From positions 128,001 through 192,000 of IMG/VR virus record IMGVR_UViG_3300020045_008999: DNA of 64,000 nucleotides; one strand, written 5' to 3'. Shown piece by piece: positions 10,150 through 53,003 of this stretch. Positions within the stretch are counted from its first letter, which is position 1, and each line of letters starts with the position of its first letter. Both the position numbers and the translations under genes were made by a program. The notes beneath the pieces were generated by a model. That model made no database searches. It had not been told where the DNA came from and saw nothing but the letters and a program-made list of their open reading frames with translations. Origin of the DNA: a virus. Taxonomy: Duplodnaviria > Heunggongvirae > Uroviricota > Caudoviricetes.

Positions 10150-10740
10150 ATGAATACACTGTTTATTAAAAGAATTGAAGATAACATTAAATGGCTGGAA
10201 AGTATAAAGATTGATATTGTCGGACATATTGCCCAACCTGGGTATGAAACAATCACGGAAACTATCAAGGTAAATCATATGACGTCATTGGATGCGATAA
10301 TAGGACACAATAAACTTCGTCTAATAAATGCCAATAGAAAAACGGTTGGTATTGCAGAAATAATGATGGATGAACTATTTAATGGCGGGATTCACATGAT
10401 GGGACATGATGGAAATGAATCTATTTTTAATATGTCAACCTCTCAAATCATGTCTTTCGAAAATCATATACGTGTAGCCATTAATATAATAGATAAATAT
10501 AATTTAATACAATGTATAAATCCATTTACACTTGATCACAAAACACAACTTCAAGACCATTTGATTTTAGCACATTGTCCTGCCGTAAATAATTTTAGTT
10601 TATATGATCATTATGAGTTATTTGAGCAGCCGCTCTCTAGTGTAATGACTACAATGCGTTATGTTTACAATATAGAACCACATTCACAAACGGAATATGA
10701 TGGGAAGATAAGACGTGGATTTCGAATAAAATGTGCTTAG
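10150..10740 (+). CDS. hypothetical protein, 196 aa
   Basis: Long ORF with upstream TAnnTTTG box. Confidence 0.7.
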   Translation: MNTLFIKRIEDNIKWLESIKIDIVGHIAQPGYETITETIKVNHMTSLDAIIGHNKLRLINANRKTVGIAEIMMDELFNGGIHMMGHDGNESIFNMSTSQIMSFENHIRVAINIIDKYNLIQCINPFTLDHKTQLQDHLILAHCPAVNNFSLYDHYELFEQPLSSVMTTMRYVYNIEPHSQTEYDGKIRRGFRIKCA

Positions 10741-10797
10741 GTTACTCGGACTTCAGAATATTTATATTATAACGAAACTAATTTGATACACTATATC

Positions 10798-11463
10798 ATG
10801 AATAATTTAATTGTTAAACAAGAAAATGACAGAATTGATTTAATATGCCAAAGATACAATATCAAAAATTATTCGATTAACCCAGATGGTTCTATTGATG
10901 TAGATGGCAATGTGGATTTTGGTGGTATGGATTTATTAAGTTTACCTCTGCGGTTTGGTAAAGTAAGTGGACATTTTGAATGTTATAAAAGTAAATTGAG
11001 TTCATTAGAGGGTGGACCAAAAACTGTTGGTGGCCATTTCGGATGTGATTTTAATCAATTAACTACATTAGTGGGTGCGCCTACTGTGGTGGGTGGAAGC
11101 TTTTATTGTACTAATAATGTATTGTCATCACTAGAGGGATTACCGGGCACAATCGGTGGTGATTTTAATTGTTCATATAATCAGTTAACTACACTGAATG
11201 GGGTGCCGAGTACTATTAATGGTGTTTTTAGTTGTTTTCATAATATGCTAACTTCTACACATTCAGGCGATACTGACATTGAAGTGAGTGGTGCATTACG
11301 ATGTGATGGTAAATTTCTACCTCAACTTTATAGAGATAATATCAGTCACATTAAATTGATTTTAAAATACCAGAGACACTTTATGGTTTGGAATGAAGAT
11401 CTAACCTTGAATGAGGAAAACTTTCAAGTATTACTCGATGAGATTAATGATGGTCTTCGTTAA
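10798..11463 (+). CDS. LRR-like array paralog, 221 aa, ~4 modules
   Basis: Family architecture; start at MNNLI. Confidence 0.85.
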   Translation: MNNLIVKQENDRIDLICQRYNIKNYSINPDGSIDVDGNVDFGGMDLLSLPLRFGKVSGHFECYKSKLSSLEGGPKTVGGHFGCDFNQLTTLVGAPTVVGGSFYCTNNVLSSLEGLPGTIGGDFNCSYNQLTTLNGVPSTINGVFSCFHNMLTSTHSGDTDIEVSGALRCDGKFLPQLYRDNISHIKLILKYQRHFMVWNEDLTLNEENFQVLLDEINDGLR

Positions 11464-22603: not shown

Positions 22604-22629
22604 GGCATAACGTAGTTTCTCTATATATA

Positions 22630-22930
22630 AAAAATCTAATAACTCAATGCCGGTCAGCGAACCGATAGGTGAGTTGCATATTATTAATCGCGATTAACGT
22701 AGTTTTTATAAATCAGATATTCGCAATAAAATTCCCTAAGTATCATATAATGACAATATGGTACTTTTAAGACATTATAATCTTAAAAATATCACTGAGT
22801 ATAAATTTAATTAAATATGCCCTTATAGATAGTATATGAGTCTTAATTTCGCGATTACCTCATCATTATTATATCTCTTATGTAGTAGGATTTGTTACCT
22901 GATATAAAAAGGTGCAACATCATGATATAT
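22630..22930. repeat. degenerate copy A of the intergenic hairpin/convergent-promoter module
   Basis: cagcgaaccgataggtgagttg at 22655-22676; decayed IR near 22891-22920. Confidence 0.55.
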
Positions 22931-22975
22931 AATAATATTATATTATTAATATACTGGTTGATTATTTAATATCAT

Positions 22976-23119
22976 TTGTTTACTGTGTAAGTTGTTTACT
23001 GTGTAAGTTGTTTACTGTGTAAGTTGTTTACTGTGTAAGTTGTTTACTGTGTAAGTTGTTTACTGTGTAAGTTGTTTACTGTGTAAGTTGTTTACTGTGT
23101 AAGTTGTTTACTGTGTAAG
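22976..23119. repeat. perfect tandem repeat, 9 x 16 bp (ttgtttactgtgtaag)
   Basis: Directly counted; no spacers. Confidence 0.95.
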
Positions 23120-23155
23120 TTACTTAATCATTTATCGGTTTTTTACCGATATTTT

Positions 23156-23947
23156 TTATTCTAAACCATCTTTAATTTCATCTAATAACACTTGGAATTT
23201 TTCATTGTTCAATGTTAGATCATCATTCCAGATTTCAAAGTGTCTTTGGTACTTCAATATCATTTTAATGTGTTCGAGATTATCTAACAATAATTGTGGT
23301 AATGTATGACCGGTGTGAAATTTCCCAGTGAATTCAATATCAATATCACCGGAATAAGTAGAAGTGAAATTTTCATTAGTACCATAAAACCCACCACAAA
23401 TGGTATGTGCGATCCCGACCATAGAAGATATTCCATTATTTGACCAACAACTATATGTCCCACTTACTGTATGTGGGCCCCCCAATAAGGAAGACAATAC
23501 GTTATCGTAACATTCAAAATTACCACCTACTGTATCCGGTGCACCTTCCAATGATGTTAGTTTATTAACACCACAACTAAACATGCCGTTGATATTGCGC
23601 GGTGAACCAATTAAGTTTTTCAAGTTATTAAACTTACAACTAAAATCATCACCAACCGATTCTGGAGAACCAGCCAATGATGATAAATCGTTAAAAGCAC
23701 ACACAAAATTCCCACCAACGGTGACCGGACCACCTTTTAACGATTTTATCATATTATCCTTGCAGGTAAAATTACCACTTACATTATTAAATACTATTGG
23801 AAATTTAGTTAAGTTTTGTTTTGATATATCAACATCACCATCAACATCGATGGAGCCATCCGAGTTTATTGAATAATTTTTAATTTGATATTTTTCACAT
23901 ATTGAATCTACGCGATCCTTTTGTTTTTTGGTGATTAAGTTTTTCAT
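23156..23947 (-). CDS. LRR-like array paralog, 263 aa, ~6 modules
   Basis: Family N-cap, 21-aa repeats, tail. Confidence 0.85.
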   Translation of the reverse strand: MKNLITKKQKDRVDSICEKYQIKNYSINSDGSIDVDGDVDISKQNLTKFPIVFNNVSGNFTCKDNMIKSLKGGPVTVGGNFVCAFNDLSSLAGSPESVGDDFSCKFNNLKNLIGSPRNINGMFSCGVNKLTSLEGAPDTVGGNFECYDNVLSSLLGGPHTVSGTYSCWSNNGISSMVGIAHTICGGFYGTNENFTSTYSGDIDIEFTGKFHTGHTLPQLLLDNLEHIKMILKYQRHFEIWNDDLTLNNEKFQVLLDEIKDGLE

Positions 23948-29728: not shown

Positions 29729-29739
29729 ATAGTATATAT

Positions 29740-29922
29740 AAAATCTAATAACTCAAAGGGTGCCAGCGAACCGATAGGTGTGCTGCATATTTACATAGTC
29801 AAATTTTTAACATTATAAAATTGTCTATGTAAATATGCTTCTTAATTTCATGTCGACACACCATAATATTTGAATATAAAGTGTCAACATAAAGGTACAA
29901 AAAAAATGATATAAATCAAGTC
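29740..29922. repeat. copy B of the intergenic hairpin/convergent-promoter module
   Basis: GA-hairpin at 29764-29785; IR tgtcgaca..tgtcaaca at 29851-29889; minus-strand promoter boxes. Confidence 0.7.
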
Positions 29923-29958
29923 TTTTTAGTAAAAAGGTATCGCCAATACAATTAGATG

Positions 29959-37582: not shown

Positions 37583-38036
37583 ATGTCTATCAGTTTGAAA
37601 ACCATACCCCCAAATTATTCACCGGTTTTATTCGAAATGTTTTACATGGTGCCCGATGAAAAAACGGGGGAAGAATATTATTACTTCAAGGATAAAACGA
37701 TTAGCCGTGATCGCTATACTCCTATATTTCTGAAATGAATTAAAATCAACACATATGAATTTTCATTTTATAGTAGTATAAAAGGGGAATACGGTCGTTT
37801 TTTTTACAATTGAATTTGGATTGGGGTTCAGAACTATCAACGAAATTCAAGGACTTTTTACATACGGTAGATTTATAATGGATAATGATTATGAATTATC
37901 GTTGGACTCATGTAAAAAGATTTATGATTTAAATCTGACCATTGGCTATTATGATAACCAGGGTGTTGAGATAATTGAATATGATCAGATGGCAATACAA
38001 CGCCGCATTACCATCAATGATATTTTATATTCTTAA
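37583..38036 (+). pseudogene. disrupted paralog of the 2121-2552 gene
   Basis: In-frame TGA at 37736 and +1 T in the T8 run near 37798-37805; YFKDKTIS, TYGRFIM and LSLDSCKKIYDLN match 2121. Confidence 0.7.
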
Positions 38037-38641: not shown

Positions 38642-38700
38642 GGTTTAATAGGGTTTCATTATATATAAAATCTAATAACTCAAAGTGGTCAGCTCAGATA

Positions 38701-39318: not shown

Positions 39319-39858
39319 TTATTCTAATCCCTCTTCTATTTCTAATATCAAATCTTTAAAGTTATCAACATTAAGTGTCAGATCATCATTCCAAATCATA
39401 AAGTGTCTCTGGTACTTCAAGATCAGTTTAATGTGTATAATATTATCTTGTAATAATTGTGGTAATTCATTATTAGACAATTCCACGTCACCCACCAATT
39501 CAATATCTATATCCCCGGAATAGGTAGACGTTAACTTGTTACGTGAACAAATTAAATCACCTACAACCGTATGAGGTGCCCCCTCTAATGAAGTTATTTC
39601 ATTATAATAACAACTAAAATCACCACCAACGGTAATCGGCCCACCCTCTAAGGAAGTTAGGTTGTTCATATAACAATAGAAATCACCACTCACTTTATTA
39701 AATTTTATTGGAAATTCCACTAAATCAACATTGACTATTCTAACATAACCATCTACATCAATAGACCCATCCGGATTAATGCTATACTTCATGATGCTAT
39801 ATTGGGTACATATTGAATCAATTCGATCCTTTTCTTCTTTGGTAATTAAGTTCTTCAT
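39319..39858 (-). CDS. LRR-like array paralog, 179 aa, ~2 modules
   Basis: Family N-cap, 21-aa repeats, tail. Confidence 0.85.
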   Translation of the reverse strand: MKNLITKEEKDRIDSICTQYSIMKYSINPDGSIDVDGYVRIVNVDLVEFPIKFNKVSGDFYCYMNNLTSLEGGPITVGGDFSCYYNEITSLEGAPHTVVGDLICSRNKLTSTYSGDIDIELVGDVELSNNELPQLLQDNIIHIKLILKYQRHFMIWNDDLTLNVDNFKDLILEIEEGLE

Positions 39859-39869
39859 ATGTTATATAT

Positions 39870-40125
39870 AAAAATCTAATAACTCAAAGGGGACCAGCGA
39901 ACCGATAGGTGAGCTGCATATTAAACTAAACTTTAACGTTTTTTAACATTATAAATTTGCATATTAATTTAACTTTTATTAACTTTGTGTTGGCACTTTA
40001 CACTCAAGTACTACACTATAAAGTGCCAACATAAAGATACAATATTATTTTCATATACACAAGAATTTTAACAACGTTGTTAACATTTATATTTCAGCAC
40101 TATGTCCTCGCTTCGCTCGGACTAA
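39870..40125. repeat. copy C of the intergenic hairpin/convergent-promoter module
   Basis: Hairpin 39895-39916; TTTG-N20-TAACTTTG; 18-bp IR at 39983-40000 and 40019-40036; opposite promoter 40032-40063; minus-strand hairpin 40104-40122. Confidence 0.8.
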
Positions 40126-40225
40126 TCATTATATATATTTTGCCTCTTATAATCTAAACTTTATTTATTCTTTACGTATAGTGTAGTTGTTAACTACTGG
40201 TTTATAAGGTACCACCATGAGGATA

Positions 40226-40963: not shown

Positions 40964-40974
40964 AAAGCTATATA

Positions 40975-43079: not shown

Positions 43080-43089
43080 AAGCTATATA

Positions 43090-43348
43090 TAAAAATTAGA
43101 TCCATCAAAGCGGCCAGCGAACCGATAGGTGAGCTGCATATTATATTAAACTTTAACAGTTTTAATTTGTAAATGTTAGATATATTCATTAACTTTGTGT
43201 TGGTACCTTACACTCAAGTACTACACTATAAAGTGCCAATATAAAGATACAAAATATAGTAATACAAAGCAAGTCTTTAATGTAAAAGTTATGAACGATG
43301 TTAACGAAGTGTCTTATCAACGATGTTATAAACAATCGCTCACTCAGA
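43090..43348. repeat. copy D of the intergenic hairpin/convergent-promoter module
   Basis: Hairpin 43115-43136; promoters 43166-43197 (+) and 43242-43273 (-); IR between them; truncated right hairpin. Confidence 0.8.
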
Positions 43349-43350
43349 CA

Positions 43351-43962: not shown

Positions 43963-43972
43963 AAGCTATATA

Positions 43973-47734: not shown

Positions 47735-47851
47735 ATATCTATATATAAAATCCAAATCACTCAAAGGTGGCCGACTTACGTAGTTATAATCGCAGTGAGC
47801 GGCATAATTCTACCCATCTTGTTCCAATCTTTATGTTAGCGTAGGTATGAG

Positions 47852-48465: not shown

Positions 48466-49206
48466 CTATTTATTTAATTGTTTAGTGTATTTTTTCTTTA
48501 TCATTTGTTTTGTTAGCTTTTCCTTATCACCATCTTCAACAATTCTAATTATTATACTATCGATACCAACGTCCTTGATCATCTTATCTAAGGTAACAGA
48601 ATGACCAGATTTTAAATTGTTTAGTAAGCCATCATTTTTACTAGTATATACTATAAATTTTTTATTTACCTGATTGGTTATGACAACAGAATAACGCTTG
48701 CTTTGTGTGAATAAATGAGATGGATATAGGTATAACTTTTCATGCAATTGTTTTAATGACTTATATCCCAAAACATCTTTCATAATATTGATCGACTTAT
48801 GTACTTCGGTATCCTCTGCTCCTTTGATAAATAGATTGTATCTTTCGTTGGGATTATTATTATCGTTAAATTCAATATTGGTTAGATCCTGGACCATAGA
48901 ATATTCTCTTATAAGCCTTTCTTCATCAGCGCGATCAGATGACAACATTTTGACAATTAGTCGACTACCAGAGTCCAGAATTCCCTTTATTAGTTTATTC
49001 TTTCTTACATTTATATTAGTTGCCTTTTGTAGATCTAATATGTGGAATGCAATCCTCCCCTTTATATTACTAGTTGATCCAATATAAAAATCATTTATCA
49101 TATACACCCCAGATGTATACGTATCTTCAATATCCGCAAACCATTTTATGTTATCAGAAACATAATTTATCAATAGTTTTTTCTTATCAACCTCAGTTTT
49201 TGTCAT
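48466..49206 (-). CDS. GIY-YIG nuclease / homing endonuclease-like protein
   Basis: SGVYMI-NDFYIGSTSNIKGRIAFH motif with downstream E and N. Confidence 0.7.
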   Translation of the reverse strand: MTKTEVDKKKLLINYVSDNIKWFADIEDTYTSGVYMINDFYIGSTSNIKGRIAFHILDLQKATNINVRKNKLIKGILDSGSRLIVKMLSSDRADEERLIREYSMVQDLTNIEFNDNNNPNERYNLFIKGAEDTEVHKSINIMKDVLGYKSLKQLHEKLYLYPSHLFTQSKRYSVVITNQVNKKFIVYTSKNDGLLNNLKSGHSVTLDKMIKDVGIDSIIIRIVEDGDKEKLTKQMIKKKYTKQLNK

Positions 49207-49304
49207 TTGTATATAAATTAATCAATTATATACAAATGATATGTGAAAGTTTAGTGATGTGTAAAATAAATAATCAAATAAATACTAGTGAATATTTAAC
49301 ATAT

Positions 49305-49485
49305 TAAATTTGTATAAGAACTTTAAATTTCTTAACTTTGTGTTGGCACCTTATACTCTACTACTAGACTATAGTGTGCCAACATAAAGATACTAATTAA
49401 TACAATACAAAACAAGACTCATAGACAAAAGTTATCAACAATCGTTCACTGCGTTTATAAATACGTTAGCGACACCACTCTGATA
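49305..49485. repeat. copy E of the intergenic module (left hairpin missing)
   Basis: Promoters 49309-49340 (+) and 49385-49416 (-); IR tgttggca..tgccaaca. Confidence 0.75.
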
Positions 49486-50088
49486 CTATTCTAATCCGTC
49501 TTCAATTTCTGCTATCAAATTCTGGAAGTTTTCCTCATTTAAAGTTAAGTCATCATTCCAGATGAAGAAATGTCTTTGGTACTTCAAGATCAATTTAATG
49601 TGATGTACATTATTCTTCAATTGCTGTGGTAGGATGTTTAAGCTACATGTTACAATTCCGGATACGTCAATATCCGTATCACCTGAGTAAGTAGAAGTTA
49701 ATTTATTATTACTACAATATAAATTACTACCAACCGATTGTGGTGCCCCCACTAATGAAGTTAAACCATTGTACCCACATCTGAAATTCCCACCAACAGA
49801 TGTAGGTGATCCTTCCAATGACGTCAACATATTAATACTACAATAAAAATCATCACCAACTGTATGAGGGGATCCCTCTAAGGTAGTTAATATGTTCATT
49901 GAACAAGAAAATTTACCGGTCACATTACCAAATCGCAATGGTAATTGTTTTAAGCGTTTATGTTCTAAATCAACATCTCCCTCAACGTCAATGGATCCAT
50001 CAGCATTAATAGTGTAATGCCTAATATGAGATCTTCTACAAATCGAATCAATACGGTTCTTTTCCTCTATACTAATTAAGTTTTTCAT
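49486..50088 (-). CDS. LRR-like array paralog, 200 aa, ~3 modules
   Basis: Family N-cap, 21-aa repeats, tail. Confidence 0.85.
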   Translation of the reverse strand: MKNLISIEEKNRIDSICRRSHIRHYTINADGSIDVEGDVDLEHKRLKQLPLRFGNVTGKFSCSMNILTTLEGSPHTVGDDFYCSINMLTSLEGSPTSVGGNFRCGYNGLTSLVGAPQSVGSNLYCSNNKLTSTYSGDTDIDVSGIVTCSLNILPQQLKNNVHHIKLILKYQRHFFIWNDDLTLNEENFQNLIAEIEDGLE

Positions 50089-50211
50089 AAGCTATATATA
50101 CTATTATTATTTTTTCAATTTTTACCAAAACAGCGAATGGAAATATAATATATACTATGTAGGAATGATGAAGTTTATTAAATATTCTAGATTAACAACT
50201 CTATCACGCTC

Positions 50212-50445
50212 AGTAGATTATCGGATACCAGCTTTTATCCCAGGGATAATGATCCAGCTGCCCATATAAAGATCGAAAAGTGATAGAACAATCGAAAATG
50301 TTAAATATACCAAACCCAAGACTACACATCGAATAGATACAACAGTGTTATACCTATCGAAGAATATATGTTAATTCATAGTAGATTATCGGAAACCAGC
50401 TTTTATCCCAGGGATAATGATCCAGCTGCCCATATAAAGATCGAA
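50212..50445. repeat. 66-bp direct repeat x2 (50212-50277 and 50380-50445) containing palindrome TTATCCC-A-GGGATAA
   Basis: One mismatch between copies; 102-bp spacer. Confidence 0.9.
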
Positions 50446-50741
50446 CCGCAATTAATTATTCAAGATAATATACCATTCAAATATCAACGGATGTCATAAT
50501 ACAAATTAAAACATATTTAAATACCCAACCTGGTGAAATGTCAAAAAAAATGACATACATACCGGGAATTACCAGTTAGAACAATCCTAATGATTTAAAT
50601 ATGAATATAATTGAGCTATTTAAATACAGTGGATTTAAGCCACTTAAATTTTAAAATGGTGTCCTAGTATTAAAAAAATATAATAAAGCCTTATATTAGG
50701 CAACATTGAAGGGATTTAATGAATTTACTTATATAAGACAG

Positions 50742-50842
50742 CAGCGAACGAAGTGAGCTGTATAATTATACAAAATTTTAACAACGTTGTTATCAACAAT
50801 CGCTCACTACGTTTATAACTACATTAGCGACCACCATCTAGA
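50742..50842. repeat. collapsed copy G of the intergenic module (outer hairpin motifs only)
   Basis: cagcgaacgaagtgagctg at 50742-50760, then aacaacgttgttatcaacaatcgctcac. Confidence 0.65.
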
Positions 50843-50844
50843 TA

Positions 50845-51585
50845 TTATTCTAATCCTTCTTCAATTTCGGATATCAAATCCTTGAAGTTTTCTTCATTCA
50901 ATGTCAGATCATCATTCCATATAAAGAAATATCTCTGGTACTTAAAGATCATTCTGAAATCAACCATGTGTTCACCATCACCGTCTTTACCAAATTGTAC
51001 CGGCATGTACTTTGTGTCATAATATAAAGTGCCCTTTAATTCAATATCATCAGCACAATACGTGGATGATATTGAATTACCTTCACAATGATAACCACCT
51101 CCAATCATAGTAGGTGATCCTATTAAGTTACTTAGTTGGTTATCGGCACAACAAAAATTTCCATTAACACTATTTGGACCACCTTCCAATGAAGTTAAAA
51201 TGTTCCTATGACAATAAAAATCCACATTAATGATATCCGGTGATCCCTTTAACGAAGTTAATTGGTTATAAGAACAAAAGAAACTATTTCGGACTAACTT
51301 AGGGCCCCAGTCTAAATTAACCAAGTTATTAGACTGTCCGTAAAATGTCCCACCAACCTCATGCGGACATCCTTTCAATGAAGTTAACTGATTTCCATTG
51401 CAATAAAAATCACCAGATACTTTATTAAAGCTCAATGGTAAATCAGTTAATTCCTTTTTGGTTAAATTAACATCACCATCAACGTCAATAGTCCCATCTG
51501 AGTTTATCGAGTAATTAAATATATTATATTTCTTACAAATTGAATCAATACGATCCTTTTCCTCTTTAGATATTAAATTCTTCAC
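50845..51585 (-). CDS. LRR-like array paralog, 246 aa, ~5 modules (GTG start)
   Basis: Family N-cap, 21-aa repeats, tail. Confidence 0.85.
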   Translation of the reverse strand: MKNLISKEEKDRIDSICKKYNIFNYSINSDGTIDVDGDVNLTKKELTDLPLSFNKVSGDFYCNGNQLTSLKGCPHEVGGTFYGQSNNLVNLDWGPKLVRNSFFCSYNQLTSLKGSPDIINVDFYCHRNILTSLEGGPNSVNGNFCCADNQLSNLIGSPTMIGGGYHCEGNSISSTYCADDIELKGTLYYDTKYMPVQFGKDGDGEHMVDFRMIFKYQRYFFIWNDDLTLNEENFKDLISEIEEGLE

Positions 51586-51611
51586 ATGTTTATCTTTATT
51601 TCAATTATATA

Positions 51612-51885
51612 TAAAATTCAGATCCCTCAAAGCGGCCAGCGAACGCAGTGAGCTGCATATTAACATAGGTAAATTTTAACGTAGATTTTAACAGTTTTAA
51701 TTTGTATATGTCCTCAACTTTTACTACCTTTATGTTGGCACACTATAGTGTAGTACCAGAGTATAAGGTGCCAATATAAAGATACAAAATATAGTAATAC
51801 AAGTCAAGTGTTTTCTGTAAAAGTTATCAACGATGTTATCAACGATGTTATAAACAATCGCTCACTGCGTTCGCGGCACCATCTA
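51612..51885. repeat. copy F of the intergenic module (complete; core inverted relative to C, D, E)
   Basis: Hairpins 51637-51655 (+) and 51859-51875 (-); promoters 51701-51732 and 51777-51808; core 51741-51768. Confidence 0.8.
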
Positions 51886-51909
51886 AATCCCCATTAGATC
51901 TATTCGAAT

Positions 51910-52596
51910 TTAATTTAATGGAATTTTCAACCAGGTCATGTTATTATACATTTCCAATTCACCGGATCCACCAGTGTACTCATTTACTAAATGATGAAGT
52001 GCCTTGGAATTGATCTGGATACGCATATAGACAGTATTGAACTCTGTGAAAGTTTCTTTGGTTGATGCCCACACAAATCCCTTAACGAATTCCTCCAGGT
52101 AAATAGTTGGAATTCTAGGTACTTCTAACTCATATTTATTCACCTGGAATCCATAATCCATCAAAGACCAAACCAAATGGAATGAAGTGATCAAACAAGT
52201 TCGGATATTCACATCCCGGACACCCTTCTTAATGACATATCCAGAATTGATAGCAGCACTTATATCACTCATAATAGGATCCGTAGTTTTCAAATGCAAA
52301 TTATATAACTTAGTAGTTATTTTAATATGACCACATGCCCATATCGATCCAAGGTAATAGGCCCGGGTAGAATCCATCTTATCAATTCGAAAGTATTCGG
52401 AATCCAAGCTTATAGTGCGGGAATCAGAAACAGTCTTACACTGAATCGAACAGTATTTTCTAGGCCTGGTCAATTCAAATCTATTGTCATATTTAAATGA
52501 CTTTTTACAATTGGAACAGATGCAATCCACCCATAATAATTCTTTATTTTTGACCGGGCGGCCTGGGCGTTTCTTATTACTCATAGTTGAATTCAT
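51910..52596 (-). CDS. degenerate LAGLIDADG-like protein with N-terminal AT-hook-like motif and Zn ribbon
   Basis: KKRPGRP; CSNCKK..RKYCSIQC; AYYLGSIWACG; second motif FVKGFVWAS lacks acidic residues. Confidence 0.55.
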   Translation of the reverse strand: MNSTMSNKKRPGRPVKNKELLWVDCICSNCKKSFKYDNRFELTRPRKYCSIQCKTVSDSRTISLDSEYFRIDKMDSTRAYYLGSIWACGHIKITTKLYNLHLKTTDPIMSDISAAINSGYVIKKGVRDVNIRTCLITSFHLVWSLMDYGFQVNKYELEVPRIPTIYLEEFVKGFVWASTKETFTEFNTVYMRIQINSKALHHLVNEYTGGSGELEMYNNMTWLKIPLN

Positions 52597-53003
52597 AGTT
52601 AATTTAATATGTTTAGTGATATTAAATTAATTTTTAGGGTTGTCTAAAAATTAATTTAGTTAAGTATAAATAATTTGTTTTTGAATCTAAACTTTTTAAT
52701 AGGTCAAATCCTACTTAGTTTAAGACTCTAATATTATTTCCATATTATCCCATATTATTATACATCACCTATCTATATATTCCGAAAACAAAACACATAA
52801 TTAATATACTCACTTTTCATGTACATTATCACACATATCTATACATTTCGACATATTTAAATGATTTGATTTATTTAATAAAACACATAATTAATTGCTC
52901 ACTGCGTTCGCAACCCCATAGAATTGTATTTAAATCATCTTTCAGGTTGTTTTCAGGTTGATTTCATGTATGTATTATCTTTCATCTTTTATATCATTAA
53001 ATA

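Follow-up and report, generated by a model that had tools for sequence, protein, structure and literature searches.

An intergenic cassette recurs within an LRR gene array of a megaphage, and in it two host-type promoters on opposite strands face each other across a 44-bp palindrome, with a small hairpin towards each end. We document here the anatomy of this cassette, its conservation and covariation, the inversion of one copy and the boundaries of its indels. With modest confidence, we read it as a two-fold symmetric, double early promoter/hairpin cassette that resembles the promoter-early stem-loops (PeSLs) of T4-type phages and may also serve as a recombination patch.

The window that we analyzed is a stretch of 64,000 nucleotides, bases 128001-192000 of a 596,785-bp virus record of 32% G+C that was judged 98% complete. 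A gp23-type major capsid gene was found in this 597-kb genome, which identifies the phage as a T4-like megaphage, and the promoter class of the phage indicates a Bacteroidota host. Counted by their conserved C-terminal tail, ~98 LRR paralogues lie between 33 and 233 kb of the genome in runs of alternating orientation, each encoding a protein of 180-350 aa with 21-aa leucine-rich-type repeats and conserved caps.

Copies of the cassette in the LRR array

Positions 1-52 kb of the window belong to the LRR array, and cassettes are confined to the run at 22-52 kb. No cassette lies near two-thirds of the LRR genes, and the LRR arrays at 1-22 kb have neither a cassette nor a host-type promoter, which shows that the cassette is not required for LRR expression as such. 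Between 22 and 53 kb we counted four intact copies (C, D, E and F), one decayed copy (B) and five fragments. All ten full or partial copies lie inside 30 kb of the LRR array, beside HEG-like genes, and sensitive whole-genome BLAST found the cassette in no other part of the 597-kb genome. Cassettes measure 230-370 bp (typically ~250). Every copy sits between minus-strand genes and its left neighbor is the first gene of a run, in agreement with an initial annotation of this DNA that had placed most copies of a recurrent module just upstream of minus-strand LRR runs.

Copy C (39859-40225; core 39988-40031) is intact, as is copy D (43080-43350; core 43198-43241), in which the right hairpin is truncated and one arm carries a change. 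Copy E (49207-49485; core 49341-49384) has no left hairpin, and copy F (51586-51909; core 51733-51776) has a core that is inverted relative to the other copies. The decayed copy B (29729-29958) keeps its minus promoter and has a degenerate plus box, a core that is 5 nt shorter and the same G-to-A change in both arms. Among the fragments, partial copy A (22604-22760) consists of the late promoter, left hairpin and first repeat only, and a remnant at 38642-38700 has the late promoter and the first stem of the hairpin fused directly to the right border. A long-form left-type hairpin on the plus strand (47765-47810) lacks the remainder of the cassette, a core-deleted copy (50730-50844) retains the left hairpin, one repeat and a long right hairpin, and a solo end hairpin on the minus strand (52895-52913) has a covaried outer stem. 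The recurrence claimed in the initial annotation was thereby confirmed, with the copy at 29.8 kb decayed, and the partial copies that it listed at 22.6, 38.7, 47.8 and 50.7 kb were all present when checked.

To describe conservation we used a gap-free stack of seven copies, comprising C, D, E and F of this phage together with r250, r252 and r259, the full cassettes of contigs L250, L252 and L259 of a related phage in JGI sample 3300057098. No indels occur within 75 nt on either side of the cassette center in these seven copies. The window contains eight composite half-sites, TTG-N20-TAnCTTTR-TRTTGGYAC, which form four face-to-face pairs (39957/40062, 43167/43272, 49310/49415 and 51702/51807), where 0 half-sites were expected from 100 shuffles. 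Bar one isolated 7-mer match far outside the array, the palindrome arm motif is intergenic solely in cassettes. The whole unit is quasi-palindromic and matches its own reverse complement at 62-67% over 200-246 nt. The two halves are symmetric in architecture, with arms that are merely 48-56% alike, which argues that the two-fold symmetry is architectural and does not stem from a recent duplication.

Cassettes E and F are adjoined by two likely free-standing homing-endonuclease genes, both on the minus strand: a GIY-YIG-like gene at the left edge of E (48466-49206; Pfam E 1.7e-4, just under the cut-off) and, to the right of F, an endonuclease-like gene (51910-52596) for a 228-aa zinc-finger protein that matches the phage endonuclease phrog_4645 (E 3e-6).

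Several other repeats lie in the gaps of the same region. Within a 552-nt gap to the right of partial copy A, a 16-nt unit forms ~9.5 near-perfect tandem repeats (22976-23125), followed by a short T-loop hairpin just before the stop of gene 23156-23947. A ~70-nt direct repeat (~50213-50283 and 50379-50449) lies inside a 756-nt non-coding gap, and each of its copies holds a 7+7 inverted repeat and a sequence like the minus -7 box of the cassette. Beside LRR blocks at 22908-22931 we noted a ~24-nt motif that consists of AAAGGTGCAACATCATG and, after it, an AT-rich TATA run. The AAAGGTGCAACATCATG motif is common to this phage and the relative (intergenic regions of L250 and L251, in LRR-block gaps) and may be another regulatory signal.

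Facing host-type promoters and putative late promoters

In copy C, the plus promoter (39956-39987, TTTG-N20-TAACTTTG) points rightward into the palindrome and the minus promoter (40032-40063, CTTG-N20-TATCTTTA) points leftward, facing the LRR gene 39319-39858 from a distance of 174 nt. Both are of Bacteroidota type (-33 TTG, N20, -7 box) and are opposed across the 44-bp palindrome. TTG-N20-TAnCTTTR is present on both strands in C-F, r250, r252 and r259, with one -33 element lost in r250. Spacer length was invariant at 20 nt in the seven copies and spacer sequence identity was 42-85%, which bears out the earlier observation of fixed spacers that differ in sequence; the right spacer of copy C is unrelated to all others, and both of its boxes are nevertheless intact. 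When homologous loci were checked for conservation of spacing, boxes and spacing were found to be kept in the relative. Upstream of the plus promoter of copy C lie TTAAC-type short repeats (39932-39948) that are conserved 5' of the -33 element in the seven-copy stack, and the right arm holds a palindromic TTAAC/GTTAA repeat (40066-40085) with 12-nt equivalents in D, F and the relatives.

The promoter class is used elsewhere in the genome. TTG-N19-21-TAnnTTT[GA] has 87 intergenic matches genome-wide, 63 of which are directed at a gene on their own strand, with the ATG usually 17-40 nt away, and the -33 context of the cassette promoters (TTGTA...) also matches this host-type class. Such gene-directed promoters fit the sigma-ABfr consensus and short Bacteroides leaders that have been described (PMC7366714), and the initial assignment of the boxes to Bacteroidota promoters is upheld. 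The minus box of the cassette ends in A, a minor variant seen in 17 of the 87 matches, and the minus promoter lies 162-179 nt from the ATG compared with the usual 17-40 nt; the plus box, which ends in G, is closer to consensus and is conserved even where it faces antisense only. A position weight matrix trained on TAnnTTTG boxes penalizes the A-ending box by construction and was excluded. The decayed copy B retains the sense (minus) promoter. Together, the promoter class and its conservation in the relative make convergent, overlapping transcription from the two cassette promoters a fair prediction.

A scan for sigma-70 promoters gave no enrichment (90 found compared with 83 expected), as expected of a Bacteroidota host. 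A sigma-54 reading of TGGCAC was rejected, as inspection by eye found no TTGC at -12 spacing, and no conserved upstream ORF was seen by eye in the cassette leaders. At 547790-547863 of the genome, 13 nt separate the -7 boxes of two host-type promoters that point at each other; this pair serves two divergent genes with overlapping leaders and is a single-copy analogue of the layout of the cassette core.

A second class of signal accompanies the LRR genes. Upstream of genes, the motif T(T/A)ATATATA(G) is strongly over-represented, lying 4-5 nt before the ATG in 72 genes of the whole genome, which implies near-leaderless mRNAs, and 17-24 nt before it in ~100 others. Because it precedes the gp23-type capsid gene, we read it as a late promoter. 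It stands in front of nearly every LRR gene (for example, at 40964-40974 and 43963-43972), overlapping the stop codon of the preceding gene before most, and it occurs at the left edge of A, B, C, D, F and the relatives' copies. At the left border of copy C it lies on the minus strand (39861-39874), as a T-rich run followed by TATATATA, and ends 4 nt before the ATG of 39319-39858. With promoters of this kind of their own, the LRR genes appear to be late genes, to part of which the cassette adds a host-type layer. The cassette promoters presumably act early.

The core palindrome and the end hairpins

The inverted repeat previously noted between the promoters proved to be a 44-bp palindrome in C-F (39988-40031 in copy C), made up of 9-bp arms and a 26-bp, partly symmetric center that bears direction. 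The predicted starts of both promoters fall within its arms, such that both RNAs would begin with the palindrome hairpin. The folding energy of the palindrome RNA in copy C is -10.9 (+) and -16.7 (-) kcal/mol, and values for C and E range from about -11 to -18. Once copy F is flipped, mean column identity of the core is 93% over the seven copies, far above that of the spacers, and this identity includes conserved mismatches and comes without covariation. That the core is kept by sequence and not by covariation points to sequence-specific recognition, which a double-PeSL model does not explain.

Core orientation is X-left in six copies and Y-left in F. The inner 26 nt of copy F match each of the other copies at 77-96% when the latter are reverse-complemented and at 54-65% in the direct sense, and both flanks of copy F are collinear with D and r259 (83-89%). 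Polymorphisms in the arms place the inversion breaks inside the arms, and by these alignments the core of copy F is cleanly inverted. We had considered r259 as the orthologue of F and rejected this, as synteny places r259 opposite the 50.7-kb copy; the inversion is unaffected. The flip spans 26-40 bp, less than recombinase-mediated looping would require. Spontaneous small inversions at hairpin loops are known from plastid spacers (PMC12371153), and hairpin-associated flips of 4-50 bp between short inverted repeats have been described in chloroplast non-coding DNA (Kelchner and Wendel 1996, reviewed in PMC12371153). The flip of the F core matches these events, in that a segment is turned while its flanks stay collinear; unlike the chloroplast inversions, which are neutral by-products in organelle spacers, it affects a core that is 93% conserved. 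A Bacteroidales-type inverton was rejected. Neither promoter is enclosed by the arms, the flip covers 26-40 bp, and the genome encodes no serine recombinase and a single, distant tyrosine recombinase-like ORF.

A flip of the core would swap the first ~20 nt, and with it the leaders, between the two transcripts. It is conceivable, if rather improbable, that the 44-bp core is a functional flip-flop, turned by way of an extruded hairpin or cruciform and a phage factor. Its orientation would then assign the leaders, and the set of cassettes would provide bistable or variegating control together with a recombination hotspot, varying from one infection to another which blocks of the ~100-gene LRR repertoire are expressed or rearranged.

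Each end hairpin lies upstream of a promoter on the same strand and shares an architecture of a 4-bp stem, tandem G.A, a 2-3-bp stem and a GNA or 4-nt loop. The left hairpin of copy C (39895-39916, plus strand; 3-bp inner stem and 4-nt loop) is more stable on the plus strand (-10.5 compared with -8.2 kcal/mol), and the right hairpin (40104-40122, minus strand), with the same architecture and different stem letters, is more stable on the minus strand (-8.1 compared with -5.7 kcal/mol). This pattern is general, with the stable strand being plus at left ends and minus at right ends. The structural motif occurs seven times in 597 kb, always in the cassette region, and 0-3 times in shuffles. In an alignment of 11 hairpin copies, 96.7% of cells were paired and no shuffle equaled the covariation; four of the six pairs show changes on both sides, the tandem G.A is almost invariant and two G.U wobbles work on the stated strand only. 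In long-form hairpins, the inner mini-hairpin is repeated in tandem as 2-6 units of 12 nt.

The end hairpins are weak, with folding energies of -5 to -10.5 kcal/mol, some no better than those of shuffles. A T-run follows none of them and no cassette holds a terminator-like site, which suggests that they are structured elements and not canonical terminators. The flanks of the palindrome are T-rich on the 5' side and A-rich on the 3' side, the reverse of a terminator. We therefore rejected an intrinsic (bidirectional) terminator, for which no GC-rich stem with a T-run was found in any cassette. A search of the window with Rfam 15 gave no match at gathering thresholds, and 49150-52000 only a sub-threshold chance match. 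The flanking hairpins on opposite strands that had been proposed are real, strand-specific and covarying, but small and without a T-run. The stable strand of the left hairpin would be transcribed only through a putative kilobase-long antisense RNA. Copy C also contains a remnant hairpin on the plus strand (40183-40197); its homologue in L252 flanks an opposite-strand methyltransferase gene on the 3' side.

The related phage, known counterparts and alternative readings

In the window, the right-hand neighbors of cassettes are all minus-strand genes, and the plus transcript would consequently be antisense in this phage. The relative differs. In L259, a 513-aa HATPase_c_3 gene lies behind the plus promoter, with its start ~150 nt past the core, inside the cassette arm; it has no clear host-type box of its own and is followed by its own hairpin and then by the right hairpin of the cassette. 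Another copy in the relative has a 60-aa membrane ORF in the same arm, and positions 310-359 of copy C match L252 4311-4261 at 76%, a remnant of the 3' flank of the methyltransferase gene. These cargo genes suggest that the cassette works as a bidirectional promoter region with crossing transcripts and a slot for cargo. The relative's cassettes also adjoin ORFan cargo.

Copy E and r250, its positional orthologue in L250, are 85.7% identical over gene and module up to 49302, the left boundary of their orthology, past which this phage has the GIY-YIG-like gene and the relative an opposite-strand 78-aa ORF. The positional orthologue of the core-deleted 50.7-kb copy is r259, which is full where this phage has that copy and 650 nt of other DNA. 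The two phages are also unlike in block order, and the relative's contigs end inside cassettes. By this comparison with one relative, in fragments, it is at the edges of cassettes that the two phages differ in gene content.

In IMG/VR, loose patterns of the palindrome arms and of the hairpin gave chance matches only. The specific core pattern found nothing in IMG/VR and, in JGI metagenomes, one chance match inside a murG-like gene (L254). A protein-based locus search of IMG/VR returned one distant LRR locus (L247) without cassettes, and the Logan, ENA and JGI contigs with LRR paralogues (L248, L249, L251, L253, L255-L258 and L260-L262) contained no cassette.

Other genes of the region also bear on its plasticity. 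At 108068-108697 of the genome (L263 1569-2198, plus strand), a tyrosine-recombinase-like ORF of ~180-209 aa (PF00589, 37.6 bits) lies amid LRR genes, and the related Logan contig L255 has a 183-aa Phage_integrase gene (10251-10802) ~1.3 kb from LRR genes; such small ORFs could be a shufflon-like link to the array. The plus strand at 37857-38027 encodes a 57-aa remnant (49% identity) of an opposite-strand gene family of 143-145 aa, which is intact at 2121-2552, at 120.7-122.8 kb of the genome and in the relative's L260.

The closest known counterpart of the cassette appears to be the PeSL (PMC2839356). PeSLs are sites where T4-type phages start early transcription and swap genes, and they have been described in RB49/phi1, T4/PST and KVP40/nt-1 (Arbiol et al. 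2010, PMC2839356; Comeau et al. 2014, PMC4122927). Each is a one-directional unit of ~100 bp between a stop codon and the next Shine-Dalgarno sequence and ATG, consisting of a sigma-70 -35/-10 promoter and a GC-rich stem-loop that was shown to terminate (PMC2839356, PMC4122927). Like a PeSL, the cassette is a repeated, conserved intergenic element with a promoter of the host primary-sigma type, predicted to be early, and a stem-loop. It is concentrated in a hyperplastic region full of non-core genes, beside variable and orphan genes, in a phage that is itself T4-like with a gp23-type capsid gene, and indels and gene replacements relative to the one fragmentary relative map to cassettes. Unlike the compact one-directional PeSL, it has two opposed units whose promoters lie ~170 nt from the ATG and whose transcripts must cross a shared 44-bp palindrome. 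It also differs in its length of 230-370 bp, its Bacteroidota -33/-7 promoters, its ~170-nt leader and its small G.A/GNA hairpins without T-runs.

On the double-PeSL reading, the cassette would consist of two promoter-plus-hairpin units, one per strand, placed head to head, each half comprising from the outside in a small hairpin, TTAAC-type repeats, a sigma-ABfr-type promoter and a palindrome arm. We infer promoter activity, its timing and the roles of the hairpins from the sequence. Host polymerase would fire from both promoters early in infection; the minus transcript would cross a ~170-nt leader into the next LRR run, and the plus transcript would enter a real gene in some copies of the relative or, in this genome, the antisense of the previous LRR run. 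The palindrome hairpin at both RNA 5' ends would probably be a protective stem-loop, and it may double as a shared operator. The end hairpins would fold stably in a transcript arriving from outside on that strand, and we read them as possible 3'-end or insulating elements. The cassette would add an early and antisense layer and would not be the sole LRR promoter. Since it is repeated and conserved, it could also act as a patch of homology where phages acquire, lose or exchange blocks and accessory genes. This model leaves unaccounted for the sequence-conserved core, the flip in one copy and the G.A/GNA hairpin motif.

Coliphage 186 pR/pL is a single-copy convergent-promoter developmental switch with known repressors. 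The cassette resembles it in having opposed promoters and overlapping transcripts, for which transcriptional interference is expected, and differs in being multi-copy inside a paralogue array, with a palindrome at both starts and no known regulator. A convergent-promoter switch or antisense control of this kind would rest on interference between the two promoters, whether by collision, by occlusion or by a duplex over the ~40-75 nt that they share, with the plus promoter making an "anti-late" RNA and blocks being held off early or variegated. This is compatible with all sequence facts and differs from the double-PeSL reading solely in the purpose of the plus transcript; we consider it unlikely. 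T4 makes early RNA complementary to its late genes, and the LRR genes appear to be late genes. The plus box is the better match to consensus, conserved even where it faces antisense only, and the left hairpin is stable on the plus strand, where such antisense RNA would end. However, the opposed promoters on which the initial proposal of a convergent-transcription switch was based, although conserved in the relative, have a real gene behind the plus promoter there, which is a simpler reason for that promoter. The switch would also leave out the two-thirds of LRR genes without a nearby cassette, no factor that would set it was identified, and 3-10 kb of unterminated antisense transcription would have to be assumed.

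A lower probability attaches to a DNA-level element whose palindrome and hairpins extrude, be it a recombination or replication-initiation site or MITE/REPIN-like mobile ends. A GNA loop that is closed by C-G and combined with pyrimidine-GA-purine tandem mismatches makes a classic stable DNA mini-hairpin, the ends are mutually inverted repeats within a unit that is quasi-palindromic throughout, and the inverted F core needs a hairpin or a template-switch event. Deletion derivatives break in hairpins, and expansion has brought the 12-nt hairpin units to 2-6 copies. MITEs and REPINs likewise are intergenic and have quasi-palindromic bodies with inverted ends that form hairpins. Unlike those, however, all copies lie within 30 kb of one array, no target-site duplication marks the borders and the genome has no cognate Y1/HUH transposase (PF01797 absent); a MITE, REPIN or IS200-IS605-derived repeat was rejected on these grounds. 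There is also no serine recombinase, the sole tyrosine recombinase-like ORF is >40 kb from the nearest copy, and no cassette was seen in the ~30 kb examined of a related phage that has both this recombinase and LRR genes. A segment of 26-40 bp is too short for recombinase looping, and spontaneous hairpin inversions are known (PMC12371153). No skew or composition feature occurs at cassettes, and for a transcription-primed origin of the T4 oriF/oriG type the lack of a skew inflection is joined by the multiple close copies, which argue against it. The suggestion that the module is a replication or recombination initiation site driving array amplification was thus not supported, given the absence of a skew feature, of HUH/Y1 or serine recombinases and of any copy outside the array. 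Least probable, in our judgment, is an RNA processing site, in which the whole cassette in a read-through RNA forms a long imperfect hairpin that is cut by a double-strand-specific RNase, separating blocks much as RNase III sites lie between the early genes of T7. Whole-module minus-strand RNA does fold at -74.6 kcal/mol (z -5.4) for F and -59.3 (z -4.0) for C, and the fold has the palindrome and -7 boxes at its apex and, in F, a ~20-bp base duplex of the two ends. Yet the left and right ends of the same copy are mostly of different forms (short and long, or one missing), which means that end-to-end pairing is not conserved. Covariation backs the local hairpins, a solo hairpin exists, and the conserved -33 elements and N20 spacing would be left unexplained.

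If the promoters fire as predicted, the double-PeSL reading would extend the PeSL idea from sigma-70 hosts to Bacteroidota megaphages. It would also add a new architecture, in which one cassette serves both strands and a block or insert could be expressed and insulated in either orientation. The conserved core and the hairpin are candidate binding sites for phage factors. Together with the predicted starts, the 93%-conserved core and the tandem G.A hairpin provide handles on the timing of a ~100-gene LRR repertoire, and the same handles may serve the study of gene gain and loss in such arrays.
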